Below the pieces are notes generated by a model. It saw only the letters and a list, made by a program, of their open reading frames with translations, was not told the DNA's origin and did not search any database. A program made the position numbers and the translations under genes. 64,000 bases of DNA from Candidatus Moraniibacteriota bacterium (GTDB lineage: Bacteria > Patescibacteriota > Minisyncoccia > Moranbacterales > GCA-2747515): positions 1,558-65,557 of the forward strand of contig CP175956.1 in the NCBI GenBank assembly GCA_046116545.1. Reading direction: 5' to 3'. Shown in pieces: positions 15,317 to 38,011 of this stretch. Positions within the stretch are counted from its first letter, which is position 1. The number at the start of each line of letters is the position of its first letter.

Positions 15317-15399
15317 AGTATAAGAAGTATACACTGCCCTATACAAAATTGCAAGCTTCTGCTAGTATGAACATGAATAAATAATCTTCAAAAAACTTT

Positions 15400-16347: not shown

Positions 16348-16377
16348 AGCTCACTAAAAATTTAGTGAGCTTTTTTA
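16348..16377 (+). terminator. Rho-independent terminator
   Basis: Hairpin AGCTCACTAAAAATTTAGTGAGCT followed by TTTTTT. Confidence 0.6.
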
Positions 16378-16477
16378 TTAGTTCAAGTCATATAAATCCC
16401 TTTATTATGGGATTTTTTTCATTTCACTAAAATTTTAGTATATAGAGTGAAGACTTATTAAATATTAAAACAACCAT

Positions 16478-17764
16478 ATGTCTCAACAACAATTGGTCTG
16501 GTGCACCACAAAGCGCCGTGTTGATGAACTTGTACCTCAAGAGATCAATCCACGTACAATTTCTGACAAGCAAATGTCAGATCTAAAAAAGTCATTGAGG
16601 AAATATAACTTGGTCGAAATTCCTGTTGTGGATTTGGATAACAAAATACTTGCAGGACACCAAAGACTCCTTGCACTAAAAATCCTAGGGCGAGGGACTG
16701 AAACAATTGATGTACGTATTCCTAATCGTGCACTTACTAAAAAAGAATCTGAGCAATATCTCATCGCTAGTAATAAACTTGGTGGCGACTGGGACTACGA
16801 CTTACTCAAACACTTTGATTTAGATATCCTATCAGATGCAGGATTTGATGATATGGAACTTGTCTCGTTTTGGGACAAAGATAATGAATCTATCGATGAT
16901 GATTTTGAAACAACAAAGGAACTAAATAAGATTCATTCCCCTGTCACAAAACGTGGTGACCTTATCATTATGGGAAAACACAAACTTCTTTGTGCAAGTG
17001 CAACTGATCCTGATGCAGTAAAAAATCTTTTTGGAAAAGATAAAGTTGCAATGTATTATAGCGACCCACCTTACAATATTGCTCTTGACTATAACAAAGG
17101 TGTTGGCAATAAAGCAAACTATGGTGGTGATGTTGATGATGATAAATCACCTAAAGACTACAAATTATTTATAAAACAAGCACTAGAAAATGCTATTTCA
17201 GTATCACAAAAAGATCTACACATTTTCATGTGGTGTGATGAAGCTTGGGTATGGGTATTTCAAACTCTCTACAATGACCTTGGTATAAGAAATCGTAGAT
17301 TGAATGTGTGGTTAAAAAATAATGCATCTCCCTGCCCTGATGTCGCATTTAATAAGGTACTTGAATATTGTTGTTATGGCACACTAGGAAAGCCATTTCT
17401 TTCAAAAAACCTTACAAATCTCAATGAAGTAATGAATAGGGATGCTGGTACAGGCAATGACCTACATGATTATGTTACAAATGTCTGGGCAGTAAAACGA
17501 CTAGCTGGTAATAAATATAGTCATCCGACAGAAAAAAATCCTGAACTTCATGAAAAAGCAATTAAACGATGTACAAAACCTGGTGATATTATTTTTGATT
17601 CCTTTTCTGGATCAGCTAGTACCATGATTTGTGCACATCAGCTTGATCGTATTGTATACGCAACAGAGACTTCCGAGGTCTTCTGTGATTTAGCGATTCA
17701 AAGATACGAGAAGCTTACAGGAGATAAAGTAAAAATTATAAAAAAATTCTATGAAGAAAAATAA
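16478..17764 (+). CDS. ParB-like nuclease domain fused to a DNA N6-adenine/N4-cytosine methyltransferase (phage-type DNA modification methylase)
   Basis: 428 aa. The N-terminal ParB/Srx-like region is KILAGHQRLLALKILG. The methyltransferase motif IV is SDPPYN and motif I is FDSFSGSAST (beta-class order IV...I). Confidence 0.75.
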   Translation: MSQQQLVWCTTKRRVDELVPQEINPRTISDKQMSDLKKSLRKYNLVEIPVVDLDNKILAGHQRLLALKILGRGTETIDVRIPNRALTKKESEQYLIASNKLGGDWDYDLLKHFDLDILSDAGFDDMELVSFWDKDNESIDDDFETTKELNKIHSPVTKRGDLIIMGKHKLLCASATDPDAVKNLFGKDKVAMYYSDPPYNIALDYNKGVGNKANYGGDVDDDKSPKDYKLFIKQALENAISVSQKDLHIFMWCDEAWVWVFQTLYNDLGIRNRRLNVWLKNNASPCPDVAFNKVLEYCCYGTLGKPFLSKNLTNLNEVMNRDAGTGNDLHDYVTNVWAVKRLAGNKYSHPTEKNPELHEKAIKRCTKPGDIIFDSFSGSASTMICAHQLDRIVYATETSEVFCDLAIQRYEKLTGDKVKIIKKFYEEK

Positions 17765-18173
17765 ATTAACAAAGCAATTTCTTGAAGAGTTGCGCAAGGT
17801 GCCAATTGTACAAGTTGCTTGTGAAAAAACTGGAATTTCACGCAATAGTGTTTATCGCTGGCGACGTGAAGATAAAAAATTTGCGACACAAATGGATGAA
17901 GCTCTCTCTGATGGTGTTGCCTTCGTAAATGATATGTCAGAAAGCCAACTACTTACCATGATCAAAGAAAAAAATTGGTCAGCAATTAGTTTTTGGTTAA
18001 GACATCGTAATGACAATTACAAAAACAAAGTAGAAATTACTACAAAGGAAGATGTTGAAGAGCTAACACCTTCTCAACAAAAGATTGTGAAGCAAGCTCT
18101 AAAACTTGCATCGCTTAATAAAACTAACTCTATAAATAATTTAAAGAAAAGATATGACAAAAAGAAAAACTAA
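17751..18173 (+). CDS. Phage terminase small subunit (HTH-containing)
   Basis: 140 aa. HTH VACEKTGISRNSVYRWRRE. It overlaps the upstream methylase gene by 14 nt and terL by 20 nt. Confidence 0.55.
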   Translation: MKKNKLTKQFLEELRKVPIVQVACEKTGISRNSVYRWRREDKKFATQMDEALSDGVAFVNDMSESQLLTMIKEKNWSAISFWLRHRNDNYKNKVEITTKEDVEELTPSQQKIVKQALKLASLNKTNSINNLKKRYDKKKN

Positions 18174-19695
18174 TTCAGTGTTACCCACAGCACTGATAAA
18201 CAAAATGATGAAAGACCGTGCAGTACGTACAAGTATTACGAAAGATAGCTTTATGTATTTCTTTCACTTTTACTATGCACATTATGTAAAATATCCAACA
18301 GCCGACTTTCAAAAAGAAATCATGCACCATCTTGAGACAAGTGCAACGGAAAATTTGTATGTGGTTGCTTTTCGTGGATCAGGTAAATCAACAGTTGTAA
18401 CAACTGCTTACCCTATTTGGGCAATACTTGGTAAACAACAAAAAAAGTTTTGTATGATCTTTACACAAACACAGGCACAAGCAAAACAGCACATGATGAA
18501 TATTCGCACGGAGCTTGAAGGTAATGAACTTCTCAAAAGAGACCTTGGACCATTTCAAGAAGAAAGTGATGAATGGGGTTCTCATTCGTTAGTTTTTAAA
18601 AAACACGGTGCACGCATTACAGTTGCTTCTACGGAGCAAAGTATTCGTGGTATCCGTCACAACGAACATCGACCTGATCTTTTTATTTGTGATGATGTTG
18701 AAGACGTACAATCAACTAAAACACGTGAGAGTCGAAATAAAACATATAACTGGTTGCGTGGCGAGGTTGTTCCTGCAGGTGATCGTAATACGAGACTTAT
18801 TATCGTTGGAAATCTACTACATGAAGATTCCCTACTAATGAGAATTAAAGATGAGGTTTCACAAGATAAGGCCGATGGCATATTTAAGTCCTATCCCCTC
18901 CTCGATGACAAGGAACATTGCATATGGCCAGGAAAGTATCCTGATGCTAAAGCATTGGAGAAAGAAAAAAAGAGTGTTGCAAGTGAATTATCTTGGCAAC
19001 GTGAATACCTCTTACGCATTATACCAAGTGATGATCAAGTTATTTATCCAGAATGGCTTCAGTACTATGATGAATTGCCTGGTGAAGATCACAAAGGTTA
19101 CCGTGCAACATATGCGGGAGTAGATCTTGCAATTTCCACAAAGGATTCTGCGGATGATACTGCCATTGTATTTGCTCACATCTATTCTCGATCAGACAAC
19201 CTAAGAATCTACATTCTACCAAATCCTATTGTAAAAAAGATTACATTTCCAGAACAAGTTGATCTTATGAAAGATATTACAAATACTCATCTTTCAGGTG
19301 AAGGTAGTAAGTTATTTGTTGAAAGTGTTGCCTACCAAGAGGCACTACCTCAAATGCTTGAGCATCAAGGAATTAATGCAACAGCCATTAAACCTAAGGG
19401 CGACAAGCGAACACGCCTTGCACTTACATCAACAGCAATAAAATCTGGGATTATTAAGTTTCCACGTAAAGGTTGTAAAAGATTAATTGAACAACTTGTT
19501 GGTTTTGGTGTAGAAAAACATGATGATCTAGCTGATGCATTTTCATTACTCATCAATGCAACAATGGACGAACATTCCAATGAAGGTACTATTCTTCTGT
19601 TTTGGTTAGGTAGTGATGATGACGACGATACACTCTACTGTAGCGACTACGTCGATATGGACAAAAATTGCGATAGAAAGGGTCGACCATTGTAA
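18154..19695 (+). CDS. Phage terminase large subunit (ATPase plus RNaseH-like nuclease)
   Basis: 513 aa. Walker A is FRGSGKST and Walker B is LFICDDVED. Acidic nuclease motifs are GVDLAIS..DDTAIV and HDDLADAF. Confidence 0.8.
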   Translation: MTKRKTNSVLPTALINKMMKDRAVRTSITKDSFMYFFHFYYAHYVKYPTADFQKEIMHHLETSATENLYVVAFRGSGKSTVVTTAYPIWAILGKQQKKFCMIFTQTQAQAKQHMMNIRTELEGNELLKRDLGPFQEESDEWGSHSLVFKKHGARITVASTEQSIRGIRHNEHRPDLFICDDVEDVQSTKTRESRNKTYNWLRGEVVPAGDRNTRLIIVGNLLHEDSLLMRIKDEVSQDKADGIFKSYPLLDDKEHCIWPGKYPDAKALEKEKKSVASELSWQREYLLRIIPSDDQVIYPEWLQYYDELPGEDHKGYRATYAGVDLAISTKDSADDTAIVFAHIYSRSDNLRIYILPNPIVKKITFPEQVDLMKDITNTHLSGEGSKLFVESVAYQEALPQMLEHQGINATAIKPKGDKRTRLALTSTAIKSGIIKFPRKGCKRLIEQLVGFGVEKHDDLADAFSLLINATMDEHSNEGTILLFWLGSDDDDDTLYCSDYVDMDKNCDRKGRPL

Positions 19696-19777
19696 CGCAG
19701 TTCATGTATTTTGCATAGACTTAGCAAAACATACATTCTCTGTCATTAATAGATATATAACAATTTATTAATGATGT

Positions 19778-21076
19778 ATGACGACACAAGAATTATCAAC
19801 AGAAAATATTCGCTATTGCCTATATGCTCGTAAGTCAACTGAATCTGATGAAAAACAAGCTTTATCGATTGAGTCACAAATTAAAGAAATGCTTGCAATT
19901 GCAGAACGTGAAAATCTTAATGTCATTGATATTAGACGTGAATCGCATTCTGCAAAAGATTCTGGGACACGTCCAGTATTTAAAGAACTTTTAGAAGATA
20001 TTCAAAGAGGTCGATATACTGGAATAATAACATGGGCACCTGATCGATTATCTCGTAATGCTGGTGACTTAGGATCTATTGTAGATCTCATGGATGAACA
20101 GAAATTAGCAGAGATTCGTACTTATGGTCAAACATTTAGAAACTCTCCAAATGAAAAATTTCTTTTGATGATTCTTTGTAGTCAAGCAAAGCTTGAAAAT
20201 GACAATAAAAGCATTAATGTCAAACGAGGCTTACGAGCAAAGGTGGAAATGGGCTTATGGCCATCTGTGGCACCTACTGGATATCTAAATATTAAAGAAA
20301 TTGATAAGAAGGGACATGTAAAAATTGATTCTGAACGTGGTCCTATTATAAAAAAAATATTTGAAAAAGTTGCCTATGAAAAGTGGTCTGGAAGGAAGGT
20401 CTATAATTGGTTAAGATTTGAACTTAACTTCAAAACAGCAGCAGGTAACAAAAATTTATCTTTAAGTAATATATATCTTGTACTTCAAAACACTTTCTAC
20501 TATGGTACTTTTGAATATCCTCGTGGAAGTGGTAACTGGTATAAAGGAAAGCATAAGCCTATCATCACCAAAGAGCTATTTGATCAAGTACAAGAGCAAG
20601 TCAAAAGCCAAGCACTTACAGCTCGAAAATCAAAAGAATTTGCATTTACCAAAATTATGATATGTGGACAATGTGGCTCAGGCATATCAGCTGATGAGAA
20701 ATTTAAAAAACTTGCAAGTGGTGATGTTAAAAGATATGTATATTACCTATGTGCAAAATCAAAAGATGTTAATTGCAAAGGGTGTTACACCGAAGAAAAA
20801 GCTCTAATTCAAGAATTTAAAAAACTTGTCGATACAATTGGCATTAATGAAAAAGTTATGCGGGAGAAAATTAAAAAAGAGGTAACTCGAATTAAAAAAT
20901 TTCAACAATCTTTACTTAATATTGAGCAAGATATAAAAATTAGTGAAATTGATATTAAGAACTATGCAAAATTTATATTAAATGACGGTGATCTTTATGA
21001 AAAACGAGAATTACTTGATTGCTTTCAGGGTAAATTAGTATTAAAAGATAAAAAATTAACATTACAAAAAATATGA
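19778..21076 (+). CDS. Large serine recombinase/integrase
   Basis: 432 aa. The resolvase catalytic domain is YARKSTESDEKQ...RLSRN, followed by a recombinase domain and a zinc ribbon (CGQCGSG...C..C). Confidence 0.8.
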   Translation: MTTQELSTENIRYCLYARKSTESDEKQALSIESQIKEMLAIAERENLNVIDIRRESHSAKDSGTRPVFKELLEDIQRGRYTGIITWAPDRLSRNAGDLGSIVDLMDEQKLAEIRTYGQTFRNSPNEKFLLMILCSQAKLENDNKSINVKRGLRAKVEMGLWPSVAPTGYLNIKEIDKKGHVKIDSERGPIIKKIFEKVAYEKWSGRKVYNWLRFELNFKTAAGNKNLSLSNIYLVLQNTFYYGTFEYPRGSGNWYKGKHKPIITKELFDQVQEQVKSQALTARKSKEFAFTKIMICGQCGSGISADEKFKKLASGDVKRYVYYLCAKSKDVNCKGCYTEEKALIQEFKKLVDTIGINEKVMREKIKKEVTRIKKFQQSLLNIEQDIKISEIDIKNYAKFILNDGDLYEKRELLDCFQGKLVLKDKKLTLQKI

Positions 21077-21334
21077 GACCACCCTAAAAATAACTGACAC
21101 ACCCGTATTGAAAAAGTTCTTTTAAAAGTGTATAGTAAAGATACAATTTGAAAAACAGGCCCAACCGCCAATTATGGTGAGTGGTCTGAAAATCCAACCA
21201 AAGCAGTAAACTCCTCGTGAGGATGCCTTTGGTTGGTCATATCTAGGAATAGATATGGAGTCAGAAATGGCTCACCTTGCGGGGAGCTTTTTGTATCTCC
21301 CGCAATTATAATTAACCTAATGCAAATAACGCGT

Positions 21335-22276
21335 ATGAAAAATATACCAAAACCAACACTAATCACTATTGTAATAGCAATATTGCTATTTGTTATCATG
21401 CCAAAAGATGACTTTTTTATGCTGTGGCTGCTTATATTCTTATTTTCATTTTTAATCAGCTGGTTGGCACCTAAAATATTTTATCCTATTTTTGCACACA
21501 AACTATCAAAAGGACTATTGAGAACGGTACTTGGCTTATTGACAGTAGCCTGTTTTGTATTATTTGGAATAACAACAAATATGATTACAGATAATGAACA
21601 AAAAATTAAAAAAGATACTGCCAATATTGCAAGTCAAAAGTCGGAGACACTAATTACAAAAGCTGAAAGTTACATCAATGATAATAATATAGAACAAGCA
21701 ACAGTTGTATTATTAGAAGCTAAAAAATTAGATCCTCGCAATAGCAATGTATCAACTCTCCAAAGAGATATTAATAGACTGCAAGATTCTGATGAAATCA
21801 AAAAAATACTAACAAAAATGTCTGATGATGATTTTAATTTACTAATAGACAACAAATTACTTACGGAATTTCTTGTCAATAAAAAATTAAATGAATTATT
21901 TATTAAAGAATTACAAAATGATGGGAATGCAAGAAAAGATTATGTAATTGAAGCTGAACAAAAAAGAAAAGAGGCTGAAAAAGAGAATCAAGAGAAGGCT
22001 GATGAGGAAGAAAGGCTAAAACGAGAATCAACCCTAGAAAGTCAATTCAGTGCATGGGATGGATCACATAGAAACCTTTCGCGTATGATTAAAGATTCCA
22101 TGAATGATCCAAAAAGTTATGATCATGTGGAAACTAGATATTTTGATATGGAAGATCATCTAGTTGTAATCACTACATTTAGAGGATCAAATGCATTTGG
22201 TGCACTTATAAAAAATACTGTCAAAGCAAAAGTGTCACTAGAAGGTGATGTACTCGAAATCATTGAACAATTTTAA
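21335..22276 (+). CDS. Hypothetical membrane-anchored coiled-coil protein
   Basis: The start was re-set to the ATG at 21335 (MKNIPKPTLITIVIAILLF...). The tracked ORF has a non-coding-looking N-terminal extension over a structured region. Confidence 0.45.
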   Translation: MKNIPKPTLITIVIAILLFVIMPKDDFFMLWLLIFLFSFLISWLAPKIFYPIFAHKLSKGLLRTVLGLLTVACFVLFGITTNMITDNEQKIKKDTANIASQKSETLITKAESYINDNNIEQATVVLLEAKKLDPRNSNVSTLQRDINRLQDSDEIKKILTKMSDDDFNLLIDNKLLTEFLVNKKLNELFIKELQNDGNARKDYVIEAEQKRKEAEKENQEKADEEERLKRESTLESQFSAWDGSHRNLSRMIKDSMNDPKSYDHVETRYFDMEDHLVVITTFRGSNAFGALIKNTVKAKVSLEGDVLEIIEQF

Positions 22277-22372
22277 AAAAATACAATCACTCTATATAAA
22301 CTATATCAAAAGAAGGCTACTCTAAAATGAGTAACCTTCTTTTTTGTTTTATATATCTATATTTAAAAAATA

Positions 22373-23488
22373 TTATACATCAATTTTTTTAACATACTTT
22401 TCAAAAACTGGTTGCATTTTTATTAAACCATCTAGTAAAAATGTAATTATCTCAGCATGATCTTCTGTACTATAAACACTTACTTCATTATTTTGTCGTT
22501 TAATTCGTGAAGTAACTTTGTCTTCCATACGTTCCCATTCCAACTCCAACCCAATCTCTCGCTCTATTTCCTCCTTATATGATTCAAATGCATCAAATAT
22601 TTTTTTATTTTCTTCCTTTTTTCCACGATTAATATAAACCTCGTAGCGTGCATATTTCCCAGACACTACAAGACTCATTGATACACCGGACTTTCCTAGT
22701 CCTACAGGAATCCACATTTCAGTTCTTGCTGTTAAATTTTCTGTTAGATGTTTAGTTTGCTCCGTTTTACTTGATGATTCCAGAAATTTTGACCAAAAAG
22801 ATTTTATTTTTTCTTGCCTAGAGCCACGAACCCTCTGACTCAATGTTTCTTTCTTTTGCTTTTCTGCAATCTTAATCATAAATTCTTCTGCATCTTCAAG
22901 TGGAATAATCTGTTTAAAGTCAATAATATAATCTTCTTTGAGTTTATATGGTGTAGCCTTAAAGCACACAATGTCTATCCCATTATTTAAAAGCCACATT
23001 ACAGTCGATGTAACTTCTTTTCTATAGCTACCTGAAACTAAAATCATTCTTTGTGAATAACCTATATTAACTTTTTCAGCATATTCTTCACCATCAAAAA
23101 ATTCTGCTAACATATCCCTTGCACTCTCTTCACAATTTATATCTTCAAGATAATCAGCATATATCATTTCGATATCCTCAATCGATAAACTTGAACAATA
23201 CGACACATATTTCAATGCTTGCCATGTAACGTCTTTTCCCGTGCTATCCAGCTTATTTTCAATAATCACTAAATTACCAGATTTATCTAAGGCTAACAAG
23301 TCCAACCTTTCTTTTGTCTCATCAAATCCTGCAAATTCTTTTTGAATAATTAAGAGTTCTTCTCCAAGGCATGATGGATTTTTTGCTATCCACTCTTGTA
23401 AATTCTTTCGTTCCTTAAATCCAGCCTCTGAAAAAGTTACTGGCGATATTTCATTTAGATCATTATTACTTTTATCTATTATGTACAT
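22373..23488 (-). CDS. PD-(D/E)xK nuclease-fold protein with a C-terminal uncharacterised domain (possibly DUF4268-like), adjacent to the R-M system
   Basis: 371 aa. The N-terminal motif is LDLLALDKSGNLVIIENKLD (D...ExK). Confidence 0.45.
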   Translation of the reverse strand: MYIIDKSNNDLNEISPVTFSEAGFKERKNLQEWIAKNPSCLGEELLIIQKEFAGFDETKERLDLLALDKSGNLVIIENKLDSTGKDVTWQALKYVSYCSSLSIEDIEMIYADYLEDINCEESARDMLAEFFDGEEYAEKVNIGYSQRMILVSGSYRKEVTSTVMWLLNNGIDIVCFKATPYKLKEDYIIDFKQIIPLEDAEEFMIKIAEKQKKETLSQRVRGSRQEKIKSFWSKFLESSSKTEQTKHLTENLTARTEMWIPVGLGKSGVSMSLVVSGKYARYEVYINRGKKEENKKIFDAFESYKEEIEREIGLELEWERMEDKVTSRIKRQNNEVSVYSTEDHAEIITFLLDGLIKMQPVFEKYVKKIDV

Positions 23489-23545
23489 ATTTTTATTTAT
23501 TATATTTTTTATTTATACTAAAAATTCTAAAATCTGATTTGTAAA

Positions 23546-24226
23546 TTAACTTAATATAGCAAATAATTGTGCCATGGTTGGGTGATTTTTATCATAAAAA
23601 TATTCCAACTGCCCTTTTCCATTATCTATTTTTCTCATTAAGAATTCTTTGCTCTCATCTGGTTTTTCTCTTAAATCACAAGTTCTGTCTAGACTTAGCA
23701 ATATATCTATATTTGAATATTCCTCTTTCCCACCGTTTTCATCTTTCAAATAATAAATAACTCCTGTAGAATTATCTATCTCCCAATGAAACCTTTTTAA
23801 AACTGTTTTATGTTTTAGATCAACTTTATATGCAAATAAAATAAATTTCATTTTATCATTCACATGCTTCATTCCTTTTATTCTTGCTATGTCTTTGTCA
23901 TATTTTTTTAAATCACCTCCCGTAGCATTGCTTTTTATTTCAATAACAAATAATACATCTCTTATATCCACTATTTCTTGATTTCCAATTTTTCTAGTTG
24001 GAGCATTGGCATCCAATAAAATACAATCACATTGAGGACTTTGCTTTCCATTTTCATCAACAATAACACCATTGATTGCTCTGTATCTCGGCAATCTTTT
24101 AATAATAACTTCTTTCAGAAAATCCTCCCTAACTTCTCCTCTTGTAAGTTTATGTTCTATAGTTTCTGAAACTTCATATTGAGCTATTAATAAATTTTGT
24201 ATATATTCATCATATTTTCTAAGCAT
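23546..24226 (-). CDS. PD-(D/E)xK restriction-endonuclease-like protein
   Basis: 226 aa. Motif QCDCILLDANAP...VLFVIEIKSNA (D...ExK). Confidence 0.45.
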   Translation of the reverse strand: MLRKYDEYIQNLLIAQYEVSETIEHKLTRGEVREDFLKEVIIKRLPRYRAINGVIVDENGKQSPQCDCILLDANAPTRKIGNQEIVDIRDVLFVIEIKSNATGGDLKKYDKDIARIKGMKHVNDKMKFILFAYKVDLKHKTVLKRFHWEIDNSTGVIYYLKDENGGKEEYSNIDILLSLDRTCDLREKPDESKEFLMRKIDNGKGQLEYFYDKNHPTMAQLFAILS

Positions 24227-24239
24227 AATAATACATAAA

Positions 24240-26717
24240 TTATTGTCCCCAAACTTCAGAGATTTTAGTTTTTAGTTTTTGTTCAAAAATTTCAATGAGT
24301 TTTTTATTTGCATCAACTATTTTTTGTTCTATTTCAATGTCTTCTATAATTTTTTCTTGTATTTTCATTGGAGCTAAAGGAAATTTTAATGTTTTTAAAA
24401 TTCTACCATTGAGCACTGGCATTGTTACACCTCCAGCTTTTTGATTAAGTTGAGAAAAAATCAAATCACTTTGAAAATATTTTTGAAAAAATATCGGCAT
24501 CATTTTTTCTTCATCTAATGTAATTTTTATTAAGCGAGGATTTATAATACCCTTCTCAAATACAGGCGGAACAATAACTATTTTTCCTATAGTTCCAACA
24601 AGGCTAATTAAGATGTCATCAGTCTTTATTTTACAGCTCTCTAATTCTCTAAATTTTTCCTCATCAATATAATAATTGCCGTATGTAAAATCATTCTTAA
24701 TTACGTGTTCTTGTCCATAAATTTTATAACCACTTTTTACATAAAATTCTTTTTTAAGAGAGGATCCAAAAGGTCCTGCTTTCATGGAATGCTTCTTATC
24801 TGATAATAATTTTTCTAGTTCCACCATTTCCCAATCTGGATCAATTTTTATATTTGGTTTCCAGTTTTCTACAACCTGTTTTGCTCCGTCGATAACTTTT
24901 TGATAACCGTCTAATTCTTTGACAATTTGTTTTTGAATTTCAAGAGGTGGAAGTGGGATTTTAATTTTTGCATATTGTGATATCCAATACCTTTTATGAG
25001 TAGAAGAGTTAAAATCTATATTTTTCATCATTAAAAATATAAAATCAATACTAGATAATGTTTTATCTTTTATTTTTAATATTTTCATGGCTGATGATTT
25101 AACCTTAAACGGAAAATCAACAAACTTTGTTGCAGTAGTAAAATCATCAAATATAATAACTGGAAGGTGATCTTCTGAGAAAATTCCATCATTTTCATCT
25201 GTATATCCAAGTAAAAAACTCTTACCAGCAGTTAAAACTGGTATTTTATAATTTTTATTATAGTTAGTTGAGCTAACTATATAATTAGTTGGTTGTTCGT
25301 AATCTAAAACATCTCCCAACTCCACCATCTCCCACTTAACATTAGAATAATCTACAACTTCCCTATATCTATCTCCTATCAGATTATAATCTCCACTTTC
25401 TACGATTTTTGTTTTTTTAATTGCAAAAGCAATAGTTTGATTTTTCTTTACTTTCTGATTCCCTTTCCATTCTCTCAAAATCTCTAAAGCTAATGGTAAA
25501 TCATTTTTATCTGGAGTTTCTCGCCTCTGCGCTCCTAAATCAAAACCATCTTGATTAATTTTTAAAAATAAAATTTCTTTATTCTTTTTTGTAATATCTT
25601 TGTCAAAAAGTAATATTGAGGTCTTTACTCCAGAATAAGGATTAAAAACCCCGGACGGCAATGACACTACTGCATAGAGCCCATCCTCTACCAAATCTTT
25701 ACGGAGTGCTTTATAAGCATTTGCTGATTGAAAAACAACTCCTTCAGGCACGATGATTCCCGCCCGACCTTTTAAACTAAGATGTTCCAAAATATAATCA
25801 ACAAAAAGAACCTCTGCTCTCTTTGCCTTTGATTTAAATTTTGAATGTGGCTCAATCCCACCTTTTGGTGTCATGAATGGCGGGTTGGCTAAAATTACAT
25901 CAAATTCCTCATCCCAATGTTCCGTTTTTGAAATCGTATCATAAACCTTAATATCTGGATTTTTGAACTTATGTAAATATGTATTTACTTTTGCAGTTTT
26001 TACCATATTTGGGTCAATATCGTACCCTGTGATATTTTTATGAATTTTTGACCTTTCTGAAGCTGTTAACGGGGTTTCTTTACCTGTTGGCTTTCCTGTT
26101 TTGTTATCAATGCCATCATGAGCTTCTATAATATGTTTATAGGCAGAAATTAAAAAACCTGCAGTCCCACAGGCTGGGTCTAAAATCCTATCATCTTTTT
26201 TAGGGTCAATAGCCCTTACAATAAAATCAATGATATGTCGTGGTGTTCTAAACTGTCCTGCATCTCCTTGCGACCCCATAATACTGAGCAGATATTCATA
26301 GGCATTTCCAAGCTCTTCCGAATTGTCGTAATCAAACTGGTTTATTTCTGACAAAAATAATCCTAAAATTCGAGGGTCATTAAACGGTAAATATGTATTC
26401 CTAAAAATTGACCTGAAGAGTTCTGGGATTTTTTCACTTTCTGATATTTTTTTAGTTGCTTCTTGATAACGATTTAATTTATCTTGATTTGTCAGTCTCG
26501 TATCCATTAAATTGTGCCAAGAATACTCTTTCAACTCACCCACGAAAAAACTACCTTTTCCATTTGGTAATCTCCTTGCTTCTTCATCCATATCATCCAT
26601 AAATTTATAAATGAGAGCAATGGTTATTTGTTCCACTTGTTGCATTGGATTTGGCAATACTCCTACCAATACTTGTCTTGCCCCATCTATCCTTCTTTTT
26701 GCTTCTGATGTTAACAT
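24240..26717 (-). CDS. hsdM: Type I restriction-modification HsdM-HsdS fusion (N6-adenine methyltransferase plus two target-recognition domains)
   Basis: 825 aa. HsdM motifs are QFRTPRHIIDFIV, DPACGTAGFL (motif I) and LANPPF (motif IV). Two target-recognition-domain repeats each start WEMVELGDVL/WEMVELEKLL, with conserved HsdS blocks PLPPLEIQKQIV and PLAPMKIQEKII. Confidence 0.8.
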   Translation of the reverse strand: MLTSEAKRRIDGARQVLVGVLPNPMQQVEQITIALIYKFMDDMDEEARRLPNGKGSFFVGELKEYSWHNLMDTRLTNQDKLNRYQEATKKISESEKIPELFRSIFRNTYLPFNDPRILGLFLSEINQFDYDNSEELGNAYEYLLSIMGSQGDAGQFRTPRHIIDFIVRAIDPKKDDRILDPACGTAGFLISAYKHIIEAHDGIDNKTGKPTGKETPLTASERSKIHKNITGYDIDPNMVKTAKVNTYLHKFKNPDIKVYDTISKTEHWDEEFDVILANPPFMTPKGGIEPHSKFKSKAKRAEVLFVDYILEHLSLKGRAGIIVPEGVVFQSANAYKALRKDLVEDGLYAVVSLPSGVFNPYSGVKTSILLFDKDITKKNKEILFLKINQDGFDLGAQRRETPDKNDLPLALEILREWKGNQKVKKNQTIAFAIKKTKIVESGDYNLIGDRYREVVDYSNVKWEMVELGDVLDYEQPTNYIVSSTNYNKNYKIPVLTAGKSFLLGYTDENDGIFSEDHLPVIIFDDFTTATKFVDFPFKVKSSAMKILKIKDKTLSSIDFIFLMMKNIDFNSSTHKRYWISQYAKIKIPLPPLEIQKQIVKELDGYQKVIDGAKQVVENWKPNIKIDPDWEMVELEKLLSDKKHSMKAGPFGSSLKKEFYVKSGYKIYGQEHVIKNDFTYGNYYIDEEKFRELESCKIKTDDILISLVGTIGKIVIVPPVFEKGIINPRLIKITLDEEKMMPIFFQKYFQSDLIFSQLNQKAGGVTMPVLNGRILKTLKFPLAPMKIQEKIIEDIEIEQKIVDANKKLIEIFEQKLKTKISEVWGQ

Positions 26718-26721
26718 AATT

Positions 26722-29244
26722 TTATCTGTAAATATTTGTATTTATATAATCTTTTATATACATTGGAATTCTTTCTCCATATTTCTCTGGGATTTCACTC
26801 ATTGAAAGTTTTGAATTTGTTTCTAAAAGTGCATATTCTCCACTATCTATAATAGTTTCTATTTCTTGATCTTCGATATATGTATTAAAGAAATATTTTG
26901 TCTTTGCATAATCTTCTGAGTCTATTTCTAATTCCATTTCTGTTGATCTAAATTTTTCAAATTCACTATCTAATAATTCTGCTTTTGTTTCAAATTTTTC
27001 TTTTTTTCCAAAAGCATAATCTAAGACTTCAGGTATCCTAACTCTTCTATCTAGTCCTAGTGCTTTTTTAATTTTATCAAGATTCATAAAATTATTTGGC
27101 TTATCAAAAACTTCTGTTCTTAAAATTTCTCCTGCTTCTGATTTCCTATTTTCTTCATATAAATCTTTTATTTCTTGATTTTCTTGTATATCCTCTTTTA
27201 TAAATTTAGAAAAAGCTTCTCTGTCTATCCTCATTCCTTCTATGCCAATTTTCACTACATCTTCACTTACAATCTCATCATCTGATTCTAAATCTATTTC
27301 ATCAATTCCTGACCTTGTTTCACCTTCACTGCCTTCTCCTGGTTGTTCTTTTGGAAGTTCCAACTGCTCACCATAATCGAAGTCTTCTTCAAAGTATTCA
27401 TAATTTGCAAAAAAATCAAAAAGGAAGAAATTATCCTTATCTATTTTTTCCACTTCTTTTGTTTCTGGATTTATGTATTTAAAGACATTTTTCCTTGTAC
27501 CACGCCCTTTTATCTGCACAAAATCAGAAGGAGAAAAGATTGGTCTCATTAAAACTACATTTAACAAATTTGGACAGTCATATCCAGTTGTCATCATTCC
27601 AACAGTAACGGCTATCCTTGTCCTACTTGTTCTGTAGCCCTCTTTAAATTTACTGATACCATTCAATCTATCATTTGAAAAATCAACTGTCATTTGCTGA
27701 GCATCTTTTACATGTGAGGTCACCTGTACAGCAAAATCTGACTCATATTTTTCTGGCCATTTCTGCATTGCCATTTTATTTAAAATATTTGTAATTTTTG
27801 CAGCATGATTTTGACTGACTGTAAAAATTATTCCTTTTCCTATTTCACCACTAACTGGATCTCTTTTTGCTCTATCTAAAAAAACCTTACAAAATTGAAT
27901 ATTAGTTTTTTCGTTAAAAAACCTCCTTTCAAAACTCCTTCCAAAAAAAGTTTCTTCTTGATGCTCACCGCTTTCATCTACTGTATGTACCGAATAACCC
28001 TCCTCCGATAAAAGTTCAGTCGTTATTTCTGTTCTAATATCCAAAAGATAGGGATTTACTAAATATTCTGGAACACCATCAGATAAACTAAACTTATATG
28101 TTGGATCACCTGACTCACATCCAAAAGTTTTATAGGTATCCAAAAGTTGCCTTCTTTCAAAAGCTCTTTGTGAATTTTTTGTTTTTTCAGAATCAATTCC
28201 TTTCAAGTAATCTTTTGGTGTAGCTGTTAACCCAAGTTTATAACCAATAAAATACTCAAAAACAGCTCTGGCATTTCCACTAATTGATCTATGTGATTCA
28301 TCTGATATTACAAACTCAAAATCAGTTGGGGAAAATTCTTTTTTATATCTATCATTTACTGCCAAGCTTTGCACAGTTGTAATAACTATTTGTGCATTTC
28401 TCCACGTTTCTTTATTTTCTTTATAAACTGCAATTTGATAATCTTTTTCAAGATATTCCTTGAAAGCTTTTTTTGCTTGATCTTCAAGCTCTAGTCTATC
28501 AACTAAAAATAAGATTCTTTTTGCATTTCCAGTTTTCAGAAATAACTTTGAAATAGCCGCAGTTGTTAGAGTCTTTCCTGTACCAGTTGCCATTTCTAAA
28601 AGGTATCTAGTTTTTCCTTCCTTCGCTGCTTTTTGAATAGCGTGAACCGACTCAATTTGATAATCTCTTAAAATCTTAATTCCTGATGCTGACAAAAGAT
28701 CTGTTTTTTCTTCTTCTGAACCATTTACCCAAACTGGATTATTATGAAAATTTGAATCTTGAGATAGAGCCACATAATCTTCTCCAACATCTTCTGAAGA
28801 TAAACTTTCAGGATTTGGATTATACTCACTAAATTCAATTAGAGAATCTTGTGTTGGAAATTTAATTATTATTTCAGGATTTCCTTTTTGTATATCCCAT
28901 AAATAATGAATATTACCATTTGATAAAATAATATATCTAGCATGATTATCTCTTGCATAATATCTAGCTTGTCCTTTAGCACTTAAAGGATTTATATTCT
29001 CTCTTTTTGCCTCTAGAACAACAAGGGCTTTACCATCTTGATCTAAGAGAAGGTAATCAATAGACCCATTTGTTACATTTTCAAAATCATCTCCTTGATT
29101 ATCAACATCTTCCTTTTTTATTTTAACGTTAGCCTCAAGCTGAATATTAGCTGGTCCATTTTCATCATCAAAAAAACGCCAACCTGCATCTTCAAGTAGC
29201 GTGTTTATCTTGATACGCGCCTGTGCTTCTTTATTATTTGCCAT
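26722..29244 (-). CDS. hsdR: Type I restriction enzyme R subunit (HsdR)
   Basis: 840 aa. The N-terminal PD-(D/E)xK is DYLLLD...VLEAKRE. SF2 helicase motifs are EMATGTGKT and DESHR. It lies 5 nt upstream of hsdM-S. Confidence 0.8.
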   Translation of the reverse strand: MANNKEAQARIKINTLLEDAGWRFFDDENGPANIQLEANVKIKKEDVDNQGDDFENVTNGSIDYLLLDQDGKALVVLEAKRENINPLSAKGQARYYARDNHARYIILSNGNIHYLWDIQKGNPEIIIKFPTQDSLIEFSEYNPNPESLSSEDVGEDYVALSQDSNFHNNPVWVNGSEEEKTDLLSASGIKILRDYQIESVHAIQKAAKEGKTRYLLEMATGTGKTLTTAAISKLFLKTGNAKRILFLVDRLELEDQAKKAFKEYLEKDYQIAVYKENKETWRNAQIVITTVQSLAVNDRYKKEFSPTDFEFVISDESHRSISGNARAVFEYFIGYKLGLTATPKDYLKGIDSEKTKNSQRAFERRQLLDTYKTFGCESGDPTYKFSLSDGVPEYLVNPYLLDIRTEITTELLSEEGYSVHTVDESGEHQEETFFGRSFERRFFNEKTNIQFCKVFLDRAKRDPVSGEIGKGIIFTVSQNHAAKITNILNKMAMQKWPEKYESDFAVQVTSHVKDAQQMTVDFSNDRLNGISKFKEGYRTSRTRIAVTVGMMTTGYDCPNLLNVVLMRPIFSPSDFVQIKGRGTRKNVFKYINPETKEVEKIDKDNFFLFDFFANYEYFEEDFDYGEQLELPKEQPGEGSEGETRSGIDEIDLESDDEIVSEDVVKIGIEGMRIDREAFSKFIKEDIQENQEIKDLYEENRKSEAGEILRTEVFDKPNNFMNLDKIKKALGLDRRVRIPEVLDYAFGKKEKFETKAELLDSEFEKFRSTEMELEIDSEDYAKTKYFFNTYIEDQEIETIIDSGEYALLETNSKLSMSEIPEKYGERIPMYIKDYINTNIYR

Positions 29245-29378: not shown

Positions 29379-29453
29379 TGGCTCCGAGAGTCGGATTCGA
29401 ACCGACGACCAATTGGTTAACAGCCAACTGCTCTACCGCTGAGCTACCTCGGA
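29379..29453 (-). tRNA. tRNA-Asn (anticodon GTT), CCA encoded
   Basis: Manual cloverleaf: acceptor TCCGAGG/TCTCGGA, D-arm GCTC-AGCGGTA-GAGC, anticodon loop CTGTTAA, T-arm GTCGG-TTCGAAT-CCGAC, 3' end GCCA. A terminator hairpin follows at 29328-29355. Confidence 0.85.
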
Positions 29454-31316: not shown

Positions 31317-32597
31317 TTAGTAATCTCTCAATTTATTTACTCCATCATTGTCACGAATCTTTTCCAACGCTTTTGCTTCGATTTGACGAATACGTTCACG
31401 AGTAACTCCAAATTCTTGTCCCACTTCTTCAAGTGTATGAGTAACACCGTCCTCAAGTCCAAATCTTATTTGTAAAATCTTTTGTTCTCTTGGTGATAGG
31501 TCTTCCAACACTTCTCCGATATGTTCTGTAAGTAATGTTCTAGATGCTCCTTGTTGTGGCGCTATTGATTCTGTATCTTCTATGAAATCTCCTAATACAC
31601 TATCATCATCACTGTCTCCGACTGAAGTTTCCAGTGATACAGTATCTTGGGAAATTTTTTGGATATGACGAACCTTATCAATATCGAGATCCATTTCAGC
31701 TGCAACTTCCTCAGGCATTGGCTCACGACCAAGCTCCTGAACAAGACGCCTCACAATTTGCATATACTTATTAATTGTCTCAACCATGTGCACTGGTATA
31801 CGTATGGTACGAGATTGATCAGCTAATGCACGAGTGATAGCTTGTCGTATCCACCAAGTAGCATATGTAGAAAATTTATAACCTTTGTGATAATCAAATT
31901 TTTCTACTGCACGAAAAAGTCCAATATTTCCCTCTTGTATTAAATCAAGAAGTGACAAATTTGTCGAACGCCCAACATATTTTTTTGCAATAGATACCAC
32001 AAGTCTTAGATTTGCTTCTGTAAGCTGTTGTCTCGCAGCCTCATCACCTGCTTCTATAGCCTTTGCAATGGTAACCTCTTCTTCGCGTGTAAGTAGTGGA
32101 GTTCGTCCAATTTCCTTCAAATACATTTGAACCAAATCTGCTGTATTACTTTCAGCTGCAGCTGCCTCTTCAACCAAAAGAACATCTTTTTTCTTTTGGA
32201 TTTTTTTACCTTTTTTACTTCTAGTATCTTGTTGTGGTTCAACTTGCAATATATCATCAGAGTTCACAATATCAATACCAAAATCCTCCAAACTTTCATA
32301 AAATGCCTCCAATCCACCAACATCTTTTTCAATGTTTGGCATTGCATGCATCATCTCATCCTCAGTTACAAACCCTCTTTTCCTACCAAGTTCCATTAAT
32401 TTCGCCAAAGGTTCTGGCATTTTACTTTTTGTCCCATGTTTTCTTGTTGCTTTTTTCGTAGTTTTCTTAGTTACTTTCTTTGTAGTTTTCTTTACTGCTT
32501 TTTTCGTAGTTTTCTTAGTTACTTTCTTTACTGCTTTTTTCGTAGTTTTCTTAGTTACTTTCTTTACTGCTTTTTTCGTAGTTTTCTTTTTTGTCAT
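31317..32597 (-). CDS. rpoD: RNA polymerase sigma-70 factor RpoD with a Lys-rich repetitive N-terminal extension
   Basis: Regions 2-4 are present: [56 protein letters not shown] and a region 4 [27 protein letters not shown]. The N-terminus is ([13 protein letters not shown])x3 from 45-bp tandem DNA repeats at 32437-32590. Confidence 0.9.
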
Positions 32598-35038: not shown

Positions 35039-38011
35039 TTACTGCCAAAACCCACTAGCATCAGAAGTAGCCGTATAAGTAACAGACCCTGTATAAACTC
35101 CTGAAGGTTGTGATGGTGATACATCAACTTTGTAACATACATCAGTTGTTGATGAAGTTGAATTATATGCTGTATGAGCTGCTACCACCTGAGCTGTTTG
35201 TGGTACACCTGCGTAATCAGCGTCATCGGATGTTATTCCTTCTTCGCAAAGGTTTCCTGAGGTTGTCCATATATTATTAAACGTATTATTTGTTGTATCT
35301 GCTTGTGGGAATTGTATTACACTGAATCCTAGACCTTTTGTTGTTGGAGCGTTCCAAGATTCTGTTACTTTTGTTGTTTGATCAAATTGTGTTAGGTCTG
35401 GTATTTCATCTGTATTATTTGAATGTACTAGAGTTGTATTTGAAGCTCCATTATCATTTATCATTGACAGGTAATAACCTTGGGTATCATTTGTTGTTAC
35501 TATACAAGTTGATTGTCCTACTGCGGGAGTTCCTGCTATTACTATTCCTGGATTTGCTATTGTTCCTAGTATTACATCATAATCTCCTGTTGATCCATCT
35601 TTATCGTAACAATCCATTGATAGAGTTGCATTTACTTCTACGTTTAGGTTTAGGTCATCTAATCCTGATATTGTTCCATCTCCGTTTACAATGTAAGTTG
35701 TTGCATGGTTTGTTGTGAATGTACATATTCCGTTTGTTACTGTACATGTTGTATGGGTATTCCATGTACTACTTCCTTCTAGTTGTGAAAGGACTTCTAG
35801 TTCCATATCATTGTAAGCTTCGCTTACAGTTATTTCCATTGTTATATCATTTGAGAAGGTTAGGTTTTCATTTGGTATACCTAATCTTACTGCTCCTACT
35901 GCATTTGGATGATCTCCTCTTTCTTCATTTAATGTATTTTGGGTTATGAAGTTTTCAAAGTTGAAGTTTCCATTTAATGCTTCTGTTATCACTGTATTAT
36001 TTGGGAATATTGCATTTGTTGTATTTGATTGGAAGGTTACTTGCACTTGGGTTGTTGTTTGGGTTGTGTTATCTATTTCCGTTGTCTACTGTTATGTAAC
36101 CATTATCCACTGATTGTTGCATTTCTGAATTGTTTGGGTCATTTATTTCTACTTCTGTTAATTCTTCATATTGTATTGATACATCATTTAATATTGGAGA
36201 ATTTAATCCATCTGTTGATGATAGAATTACTTTATATTGAAAGTATTGATCATTTACTCCATCTTTTTGTGTATCATCTATTGATTCTGTTCCTGTTGGA
36301 TCTGTGAAGTATGTTGTTCCACTACAATCTGTTCCACACCAATTTGTCCATGTGCTTCCGTCACTTGAAGTTCTTAATTGGAATTTAATATCTGTATTTT
36401 GGTTTAGTGTTTCACTCCATGAAATACTATTTATTTTATTTAATGAATCCTCTGAGTTATATATACTTGATATTAATTCTTCTTCTTGATTTAACGTGTA
36501 GTTTATTTCTATATTATCTAATTCTGGAGTTACTGTATTGTCTGTTGTTGATAGGCTTGATGCAAAGTCTATTGTTCCTTGAGTGAAAACTTGAGACCAT
36601 TCACTATTTGTTAATGCTTCTATAGAAGTTTTATCCATTCCGTTTGTTTCTATATCTCCTATATTAGAAGTTATCCATGCACTACCATTCCAGTATTTCC
36701 ATGTTGTTTTATTATCAAAAGAAACTAATTGTTTTATATTTGTATTTACTGGAGTTGTTTGAGTTATTGTTACTCCTTGCATACTTTGCCACGCTGTTGT
36801 GTTTGTTTGTGAGTTTGTATCTGTTGTTACGTAGTATGGGGTTGTTGGGTATGTTGGGTTTGATGAGTATCTTACTATTACTACTCCTGAGCCTCCTGCA
36901 CCACCAACTTTTACAGCTCCTGAAGCACCGCTTCCACCACCGCCACCACCGCCAGTATTTGCCATTCCTGCTACACCTATATAAGATCCTCATCACCACC
37001 TCCACCAATTGGTGCTATACCAGGTCTAACACCATGTCCACCACCTCCACCACCACTAGCAAACCAACCATTTTCACCCACATCAATACCAAAAACACTA
37101 CTATAATCAACTCCTGTACCACCAGGCCCTCCCCAATAAGTTGAGTATGCCGCTCCACCAACACCACCCGCTCCACCACCTCCACCTGCACCAACTTCAC
37201 GAGTTCCATTATTGTACGCTCTCCCACCGTTGCTTCCAAAACCACCACTTACACTACTTGGCTGTTCGCCTACACCACCGATATTTCCATATCTAGATCC
37301 ACCTCCGCCTGATCCTCCAGCACCTCCAGCTGCTCCAAATACCGCTCTCCCGCCGCCAAGAGCAGTGCTGCCATAAAAAACACTATCAACTCCATTTACA
37401 CCATTCCAACCACCATTACCTCCATTTCCAACTGACACAAGGTGCGAGCCATTTAAAATATTTTGATTTTGTTCGTAAACTACCCCACCTGCTCCTCCAC
37501 CACCACTACCTCCACGACTATCATCTCCTGCAGCACCTCCACCACCTCCAGCAACAACTAAAAAATCGACATCACCTGGAGCTGTAACCTCAAATGTCCC
37601 AGCTGAAGAAAATTCATGAACTTTATAATCTCCTACTGTAGTTATTGTTCCACCTGTTGCAACTAATGAACTTCCATGCAATTCCACCATTCCACCATCA
37701 AAATCAGTACCATCAGTTGCATTTTCCTGAATGTAATCAGCTTCCGTATTAAAATCTATATTTGCGCTATATACATTATTCAATTGAATATCTGTTGTAT
37801 TTAATATTTTTGCATCAGAACTACTAAATTCACTCCAACCTGTTTGATTTGAAGTATTATTTGCAGTATTAACTGATTGTCCTGTTGTCCAATCTGTTTG
37901 ATTAAAAGTTGATGGAGCTGCTTGTACTATTTGAGCATTGCCAACCATACTTAGTACAAGTGTACAAACAGTCAAAAAAGACAGCATCTTTTTAAATATA
38001 TTATTTTTCAT
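35039..38011 (-). pseudogene. Paralogue of the FISUMP-type large secreted surface protein (Gly-rich then Thr/Asn-rich), split into three ORFs by two frame disruptions; either a pseudogene or assembly errors
   Basis: ORFs 36977-38011 (signal peptide MKNNIFKKMLSFLTVCTLVLSMVGNA plus GGxGG repeats), 36069-36965 (starts MANTGGGGGGGSG) and 35039-36046 are contiguous and collinear with gene 1-1965. A 2-bp deletion relative to copy 1 (ctattgttccg versus ctatttccg at ~36085) causes the 36046/36069 break. A second frame change is at ~36966-36976. Confidence 0.6.
35238..36135. repeat. Roughly 0.9-kb dispersed repeat: the 3' coding module of the surface protein gene, ~90% identical to 1-900
   Basis: Direct visual alignment, e.g. 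ggtttcctgaggttgtccata[c/t][g/a]ttattaaacgtattatttgttgtatctgcttgtgg in both copies. Confidence 0.85.

Follow-up and report, generated by a model that had tools for sequence, protein, structure and literature searches.

We analysed a putative defence locus in a 64,000-nt stretch of DNA from a Candidatus Moraniibacteriota bacterium (contig CP175956.1, forward-strand positions 1,558 to 65,557). The whole stretch is referred to below as the window, and positions are counted from its first letter. The locus consists of four consecutive open reading frames (ORFs) on the minus strand. The first of them in the direction of reading (26722..29244) encodes an 840-aa restriction (R) subunit, and the second (24240..26717) an 825-aa protein in which the modification (M) and specificity (S) subunits are fused (MS); both were identified from the ORF, its motifs and profile matches. 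These genes are followed by one for a 226-aa DUF6602 protein (23546..24226), starting 13 nt past the MS stop codon, and by one for a 371-aa protein assigned by PADLOC and Pfam to the PDC-S11 family (22373..23488). The gaps between the four genes are, in this order, 4, 13 and 57 nt. A scan for terminator-like hairpins found none in any of the three gaps and a strong one on the minus strand, with 15 pairs and a T tract, located 3′ of the PDC-S11 stop codon (22308..22343). The original prediction had read this region as a defence cluster, and motifs and profile matches in all four ORFs bore this out.

The R protein joins a nuclease to a motor. Its nuclease motifs (D63-x14-E78-A-K80 and Q92xxxY96) are accompanied by those of a superfamily 2 (SF2) translocase (GTGKT221, DESH315, TATP340 and GRGTR580); the C-terminal region, from about residue 621 to residue 840, is less conserved. 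Pfam recognised the domains HSDR_N_2, ResIII (2e-39) and Helicase_C, and the best match in the PDB was 3H1T, a fragment of HsdR from Vibrio vulnificus (4e-31). The catalytic and motor residues are kept in 64 homologues (mean identity 52%) and also in 19 homologues linked to DUF6602 genes. Motifs and domains together supported the earlier assignment of this protein as a Type I-type subunit that combines a nuclease of the PD-(D/E)xK kind with a DESH-bearing SF2 helicase. The closest NCBIfam model is that of the EcoAI/FtnUII type IB R subunits (NF046051), which the protein matches at 195 bits against a cut-off of 550 bits; it is therefore not a member of that family.

In the MS protein, the M part (residues 1-455; 25353..26717, minus strand) comprises an HsdM_N domain and a gamma-class N6-adenine methyltransferase (MTase), whose motifs FRTPR156, DPACGT180 and NPPF278 occur in the gamma-class order. 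Pfam detected HsdM_N, N6_Mtase (3e-52) and two Methylase_S stretches (1e-20), while PADLOC matched its MTase_I model to residues 1-457 (6e-97) and Specificity_I models to residues 459-620 and 628-822. A PADLOC Type IIG model also matched the S part. These profiles supported the view of the 825-aa protein as an HsdM-HsdS fusion with a complete gamma-class MTase and two target recognition domains (TRDs), and the HsdS repeats named in the original prediction were recognised by Methylase_S and Specificity_I alike. The repeats consist of WEMVEL at 462 and again at 629, PLPPLEIQKQIV at 588 and PLAPMKIQEKII at 780.

A linker of three residues, modelled by AlphaFold2 (AF2) with low confidence, connects the M part to the first TRD (TRD1, residues 457-590; 24948..25349, minus strand). 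TRD1 matched PDB entry 7bst_A (E=1.5e-37); with the N-terminal TRD of EcoR124II HsdS it shares 73 of 147 aligned residues, an identity of about 50%. The N-terminal TRD of EcoR124 HsdS reads GAA. Given the approximately 50% identity to this GAA-reading domain, TRD1 probably reads a GAA half-site. It is followed by a central conserved helix of 27 residues (592-618, PLPPLEIQKQIV... NWKP; 24864..24944, minus strand) and then by TRD2 (residues 628-781; 24375..24836, minus strand), which opens with the second WEMVEL and was identified by the Specificity_I models and weak matches to HsdS structures in the PDB. A C-terminal conserved helix of 40 residues (784-823, PLAPMKIQEKII... KKLIEIFEQK; 24249..24368, minus strand) ends the module. 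The AF2 model of the full protein placed helices at 592-618 and 784-823; its domains are good and the packing between them unreliable (predicted template modelling score, pTM, 0.55). A Foldseek search with this model matched HsdM structures, with PDB entry 7EEW at the top; the S part alone did not retrieve 7EEW by sequence.

In classical systems the frames of hsdM and hsdS often share a single nucleotide, and a frameshift introduced during assembly or sequencing could join two separate genes into an apparent fusion, a possibility that the original prediction had raised itself. A protein search returned more than 120 full-length homologue clusters (735-1041 aa) that carry both PF02384 and PF01420 and span the whole query. 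In the alignments of these homologues the M part and both spacer helices are conserved, the TRDs are shuffled as in ordinary hsdS genes, and the junction between M and S is conserved in frame (…GDRYR…DYSN.KW.MVELG). The best 80 loci from species-representative genomes made up the R-MS sample. In 76 of the 80 the match covers MS residues 1-82x, and the loci come from more than 20 phyla and one archaeon. In essentially every locus with upstream DNA, the gene immediately preceding MS on the same strand encodes a homologue of the approximately 840-aa R protein (800-1000 bits). Within 10 kb in the 80 best loci, neither hsdM nor hsdS was found as a separate gene, nor was a second M, S or R gene found in the 64-kb window. 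Since the continuous architecture is conserved in many unrelated genomes, among them complete chromosomes and Escherichia coli plasmids, a frameshift artefact is excluded and its probability negligible. The M-S fusion is a natural, conserved and widespread two-gene family in which a gene for an R protein of about 840 aa precedes one for a fused chain of about 820 aa (denoted M~S below). It had been called unusual, as classical Type I systems keep hsdS separate; the arrangement is indeed non-classical, but it is not rare. The components expected of a Type I restriction-modification (R-M) system are all present (a nuclease-translocase R, an HsdM-type gamma-class MTase and a two-TRD module with its helices). 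What departs from the classical scheme of three separate subunits is that M and S form one polypeptide, in the window and in the homologues.

The same module was found on IncF plasmids of E. coli. Of 5426 complete genomes of this species, 78 carry it on plasmids, with identities of at least 99%. Its R protein aligns to the window R along the full length at 51% identity; its M protein carries one TRD. PGAP labels the two genes generically, as 'DEAD/DEAH helicase' and 'N-6 DNA methylase'. On one such plasmid (L170; NZ_CP116482.1, 3406-10954) the genes for R and for M fused to one TRD are followed by a gene for a 951-aa AAA/ABC-like ATPase of the TrlF family.

Fusions of this kind have been made in the laboratory. 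Roberts et al. (2012) fused hsdM and hsdS of EcoKI and showed that the product restricts and modifies in vivo (PMC3510504). They proposed the name 'Type IMS' for an M-S fusion with one or two TRDs and a separate R (PMC3510504). Bower et al. (2018) made an active Staphylococcus aureus CC398-1 fusion, MSfus; a clipped fragment that contains M co-purifies with this protein, which may dimerise (PMC6158711). The window system has both features of the Type IMS definition, an in-frame M-S fusion with two TRDs and a separate R gene 4 nt upstream. It resembles the engineered EcoKI and CC398-1 enzymes in that HsdM is joined in frame to a two-TRD HsdS next to a separate HsdR, and those constructs restricted and modified the bipartite site of the parental system. 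However, they are laboratory constructs derived from three-gene systems and reliant on free or clipped M, whereas the window system belongs to a natural, ancient and widespread family with its own R proteins of about 840 aa and no hsdM nearby. In the literature searched, no description of a natural two-TRD M-S family was found; the reviews deal with engineered fusions and single-chain Type IIB enzymes, and the name 'Type IMS' was met in one R-M paper only. A fused protein in Pseudomonas aeruginosa PAO1 was considered as a natural example and dropped, as 'hsdMS' in papers, for example on PAO1, denotes two genes.

Two further groups of enzymes invite comparison. The Type I system of V. vulnificus YJ016 supplied both the best solved relative of R (3H1T) and the top Foldseek match of MS, a single MTase chain of 638 aa (7EEW). 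We take the latter to be a natural fusion of M to half an S subunit that dimerises as (M1S1/2)2. That chain has one TRD, so that its dimer gives a stoichiometry like that of M2S1, whereas in the window protein each M comes with two TRDs; the two proteins are modestly similar in sequence (96 bits). A one-TRD form also exists in the window family itself, on the E. coli IncF plasmids. The Type IIB/IIG enzymes AloI, CjeI and TstI, in turn, share with the window protein one gamma-class MTase and two TRDs per chain. Their nuclease lies in the same chain and they lack an ATP-dependent motor, whereas in the window system a separate SF2 translocase carries the nuclease, an arrangement that is the hallmark of Type I. 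How single-chain enzymes with two TRDs act has been called 'a mystery', as the usual ratio of one RM per TRD is broken (PMC3874165).

The M~S chain would recognise a bipartite site and methylate it to N6-methyladenine (m6A), and the 840-aa R would dock on the M~S core, translocate DNA with ATP and cut DNA that is unmodified. Since one chain provides one M but two TRDs, the second M would most likely come from a second M~S chain, in an (M~S)2 assembly.

The 226-aa protein matched the Pfam family DUF6602 (PF20247) at 65.4 bits against a cut-off of 27 (5e-18). Its motifs, DCILLD67 and IEIK95, are those of a PD-(D/E)xK nuclease and give the active-site pattern D67-x28-E96-I-K98; E34, D67, E96 and K98 are invariant or nearly so in the clade of its relatives. 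In PADLOC it matched models of NucC, the effector of cyclic-oligonucleotide-based antiphage signalling systems (CBASS), and of Cas-associated PD-DExK proteins, while none of the PADLOC v2 candidate (PDC) models matched it. An AF2 model built from an alignment of 41 sequences had a mean predicted local distance difference test (pLDDT) score of 93.1. The top 14 PDB matches of this model in Foldseek were all NucC, over the full length and with template modelling (TM) scores of 0.65-0.70; BbvCI came far behind. A sequence match to NucC was also obtained in the PDB (9e-9). By sequence, the similarity does not reach beyond the nuclease core (residues 10-125), and the C-terminal half resists alignment. 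NucC has an ID-x30-EAK active site, a pocket for cyclic triadenylate (cA3) formed by R53, Y81 and T226, and a gate-loop latch of H136 and Y141. In the sequence alignment, which covers the core only, the equivalent of R53 varies within the DUF6602 clade and Y81 aligns to a gap; T226, H136 and Y141 belong to the part that does not align. DUF6602 thus shares with NucC the fold over its full length, the size and the E…D…E-x-K active site. The partners differ: NucC is an effector of CBASS and Type III CRISPR systems, whereas members of the DUF6602 clade are partnered by Type I R-M genes, with neither a cyclase nor a CRISPR partner.

In all five close homologues with usable context, an MS fusion gene precedes the DUF6602 gene at a distance of 3-40 nt. 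A further 79 loci (27-62% identity) came from a profile search and from scanning metagenomes. The clade sample comprised 89 loci, with 54 non-redundant members. Type I M or S genes were detected next to 43 of the 54. Seven of the remaining 11 have less than 400 bp of upstream DNA; among the last four, one has an HsdS visible by eye, one an HsdR fragment and one an IS3 insertion, and one has nothing recognisable. Three host architectures were confirmed with Pfam, R-MS-DUF, M-S-DUF-R (or M-DUF-S-R) and R-M-S-DUF. Hosts of the second kind have an R protein of 1100 aa of the EcoEI_R_C type; this domain is present in the classical R of loci L092, L095 and L158, and Pfam did not detect it in the window R. 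In 31 of the 43 loci the DUF6602 gene starts between −25 and +20 nt from the preceding stop codon, and 12 of these overlap it. Divergence among the DUF6602 proteins tracks that of the adjacent M domains and R proteins (Spearman 0.73, Mantel p about 5e-4). No conserved downstream partner of DUF6602 was found across the clade loci. The clade is small, with 76 representatives at E<=1e-30 among 1.84 billion, and weaker matches cover the nuclease core only. These data establish that members of the clade reside almost exclusively in Type I R-M operons, in which they are frequently translationally coupled. Since none of the 80 best R-MS loci carries it, DUF6602 is an optional accessory.

Some loci contain additional genes. 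A SIR2_2 gene lies between MS and DUF6602 in L143, L144, L146 and L154 (for example, L144:9126-9989), and a TIR gene occupies the same place in L097 (746-1609). On Paracoccus zhejiangensis plasmid pPZ02 (L171; 3444-10912), genes for R (848 aa) and MS (858 aa) precede one for a 246-aa hypothetical protein; a DUF6602 gene and a second hypothetical gene come next on the opposite strand, beside a Tn7-like set of TniQ, TniB and transposase genes. On Shewanella xiamenensis plasmid NZ_AP026733.1 (L172; 15-7665) the order is hsdS, a gene for an R-like helicase of 1232 aa, DUF6602, a gene for a DncV-like nucleotidyltransferase of the CD-NTase family, and a hypothetical gene.

The last gene of the window operon, in turn, is of a different kind. 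Its 371-aa product matched the PADLOC model PDC-S11 (PDLC04913) at 1.5e-136, residues 1-369 aligning to positions 1-367 of 375. The nuclease motifs DLLALD63 and IENK76 form the pattern D63-x13-E77-x-K79, with the spacing seen in NucS. At the C-terminus, Pfam found DUF4268 (residues 229-365, 8e-32), together with a weak match to NucS_C, and the NCBIfam NucS model matched at 3.6e-6; the architecture is thus the one that had been guessed, an N-terminal nuclease followed by DUF4268. No solved relative was found in the PDB by sequence. The PDC families were put forward on the principle of 'guilt by embedding', from their place within R-M, BREX and DISARM loci, and DUF4268 has been linked to the GmrSD Type IV enzymes. 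Two DUF4268 nucleases, MdgA and MdgB, defend against modified T4 and not against T4-GT7, and MdgA degrades modified T4 DNA (Cell Host Microbe 2025, PMC12366544). MdgA is widespread and has the catalytic residue E77; the window PDC-S11 has an E77 in its ExK motif. PDC-S11 is probably a modification-dependent nuclease of the Type IV-like, MdgA-like sort; it is a single-gene defence candidate that PADLOC already lists.

The original prediction had suggested that the two downstream proteins are both PD-(D/E)xK nucleases that could form a stand-alone restriction or abortive-infection pair or else be accessories of the R-M system. That they are adjacent on the same strand, 57 nt apart and with no terminator between them, would fit a two-gene system. 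The gene neighbourhoods contradict it. No homologue of PDC-S11 was found in the 169 related loci (L001-L169), that is, near the 80 R-MS or the 89 DUF6602-clade loci, and the gene that follows DUF6602 varies, encoding an SMC_N-like ATPase, a KAP NTPase, an HNH protein, an HTH/SocA protein or others. PADLOC, moreover, models PDC-S11 as a single-gene candidate. We consider a joint system of the two very improbable. The nuclease assignment stands for both proteins and the pairing falls, with the accessory role applying to DUF6602 and the stand-alone role to PDC-S11. Because it is absent from the 169 related loci, PDC-S11 is an independent neighbour and not a partner of DUF6602 or of R-MS; it occupies a hotspot for defence genes downstream of R-MS modules.

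The contents of this slot in other genomes are diverse. Downstream of MS we found PDC-S06/RloC-like ATPases, SMODS cyclases, ThsB-TIR, AbiU, RadC, DUF3800 and an unknown family. The last of these, an uncharacterised family of 225-400 aa, lies directly downstream of MS in 15 of the 80 R-MS loci as a recurrent third gene (for example, L022:5345-6226, L002:12414-13622, L012:2668-3504 and L024:10461-11138); two representatives that were scanned (L022 and L002) gave no Pfam match and essentially no PADLOC match. A PDC-S06/AAA_13 ABC-ATPase of 769 aa, with a weak match to a PrrC model, directly follows MS in L001 (12448-14757) and L015 (12459-14789). This RloC/PrrC-like ATPase occupies the same slot as DUF6602 does in the window.

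PrrC offers the closest parallel for what the DUF6602 protein might do. It is found nearly only within Type I R-M loci, where it is kept inactive by EcoprrI and triggered by the T4 anti-restriction peptide Stp. Like the genes of PrrC and RloC, those of the DUF6602 clade are embedded in Type I R-M operons or form their last gene, and occur almost nowhere else (at least 43 of the 54 members). PrrC and RloC combine an ABC ATPase with a tRNA anticodon nuclease, whereas DUF6602 is a small DNase of the NucC fold; the likeness is therefore one of proposed mode and not of family. We postulate that DUF6602 most likely works in the manner of PrrC, as a second-line effector linked to the R-M complex. It could be released or activated when a phage anti-restriction protein blocks the R-M enzyme and could then degrade DNA non-specifically. 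A more explicit version is rather unlikely as a whole and is put forward tentatively: the protein would be a guard effector held inactive by M~S or HsdS and freed to oligomerise and shred DNA once the R-M enzyme is disabled by a phage DNA mimic of the Ocr or ArdA type or by some other anti-restriction factor, and the (M~S)2 assembly would keep one of its S modules idle or in a regulatory role.

Taken together, the region is best read as a co-oriented defence operon with three functional layers, a two-gene R-M system of the Type I type, a DUF6602 effector coupled to R-M, and an independent PDC-S11; we put the probability of this reading at about 0.7. A number of points, here and among the alternatives discussed below, weigh against it. 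R is far under the cut-off of every curated model of Type I R subunits, and the inter-domain geometry of MS is uncertain in the AF2 model (pTM 0.55). The engineered EcoKI fusion required extra free M in vitro (PMC3510504). The link between MdgA and PDC-S11 is one of domain content and residue number only. For DUF6602, linkage in genomes is no proof of functional or physical coupling, and the correlation of its distances with those of M and R could partly reflect shared host phylogeny.

The alternative that deserves most attention is that DUF6602 is an autonomous defence nuclease which hitch-hikes in Type I R-M operons and is not coupled to them. A DUF6602 protein called 'Damona', carried in an integron cassette, defends alone. 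As 'guilt by embedding' shows, Type I R-M, BREX and DISARM loci harbour many nested defence genes that are unrelated to one another; the slot after MS, likewise, is a hotspot for diverse and unrelated defence genes, and in 80 of the 80 best loci the R-MS module does without DUF6602. A free-living defence gene would, however, be expected in many contexts, as is the case for PDC-S11, for other DUF6602 proteins encoded on plasmids and for the various other defence proteins of the slot after MS. The clade instead resides almost exclusively in Type I R-M loci across three operon architectures, 31 of 43 loci show an overlap or a gap of at most 20 nt, and it diverges along with M and R. A Damona-like, uncoupled nuclease is thus a real possibility but, in our view, a doubtful one.

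Two other roles of DUF6602 appear improbable. As an orphan effector of CBASS or of a Type III CRISPR system, it would be activated, like NucC, by a cyclic oligonucleotide made elsewhere in the genome. The full-length NucC fold and the PADLOC matches to NucC/CBASS and Cas-associated models are consistent with this role, as are the SMODS cyclases downstream of MS in two other loci and the Shewanella plasmid on which a DUF6602 gene has a Type I R gene on one side and a DncV-like CD-NTase gene on the other. That DUF6602 protein shares 28% identity with the window protein and looks clade-like in a phmmer search, and the adjoining CD-NTase is the sole case of its kind seen. No cyclase was found in the window operon, among the defence-model matches of the flanking genes tested in the window or in the 89 clade loci, and the likeness to NucC in sequence ends at the core, with the equivalents of R53 and Y81 not kept. 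Alternatively, DUF6602 could be an auxiliary nuclease subunit of the R-M enzyme that shreds the DNA reeled in by R. Its position in the operon and its translational coupling are typical of subunits of a complex, and NucC cuts DNA without sequence specificity to pieces of about 50 bp. Yet the nuclease site of R is intact in 19 of 19 DUF6602-linked systems, most R-MS systems lack DUF6602, and four loci have a SIR2 or TIR gene between MS and DUF6602. The idea that DUF6602 substitutes for a dead R nuclease was rejected outright, as every linked system keeps an intact active site in R.

The neighbourhood of the operon includes further features. A tRNA-Asn(GTT) gene (29379..29453, minus strand) lies directly 5′ of the R gene and has a promoter-like site of its own at 29510-29482; it could mark the boundary of an island. 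Direct repeats of its 3′ end, of the kind left at attachment (att) sites, were sought to delimit such an island, and none was found at positions 10000-31000. The adjoining dnaG-rpoD pair confirms that the window comes from a bacterial chromosome. RpoD (31317-32597, minus strand) has a lysine-rich tandem repeat of about three copies at its N-terminus, before regions 1.1 to 4. Farther along, a segment at 37001-38000 that coincides with an ORF (36977-38011) has a GC content of 0.43, against about 0.31 elsewhere, together with a strong negative GC skew; it gave no Rfam match.

On its other side, the defence operon is abutted by a prophage- or satellite-like element at about 14696-22276. A LexA/CI-like repressor of the S24 family (14696-15346, minus strand) faces the plus-strand genes of the element, the first of which is an unknown gene. 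The plus-strand genes encode an N6_N4 DNA methylase (16478-17764), a helix-turn-helix protein (17751-18173), a protein resembling a large terminase (18154-19695) and a large serine recombinase (19778-21076). Just 3′ of the recombinase gene, a LOOT RNA (Rfam RF03000; 21158-21273, plus strand) reached 67.9 bits, above the gathering score of 46.4, and overlaps the start of an ORF at 21233-22276.

The R-MS module gives a new standing to Type IMS. So far discussed as an engineered evolutionary intermediate, this arrangement is a successful natural family whose range extends from bacteria of the candidate phyla radiation (CPR) to conjugative plasmids of E. coli. Its genes carry generic pipeline labels, and R-M censuses probably undercount it. 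The family provides a natural system in which to ask how one MTase domain serves two TRDs, a puzzle shared with AloI and CjeI, and the relatives on E. coli plasmids make experiments on R-MS straightforward. The DUF6602 clade, for its part, represents an effector fold of the CBASS type that is re-used without a cyclase. Locked to R-M operons, this NucC-fold clade is a new lead and a candidate for a second abortive-infection effector, after PrrC, that guards R-M. If the guard reading were true, a NucC-fold DNase would have exchanged control by cyclic nucleotides for control by the methyltransferase core of an R-M system, and DUF6602 would be an analogue of PrrC that targets DNA.

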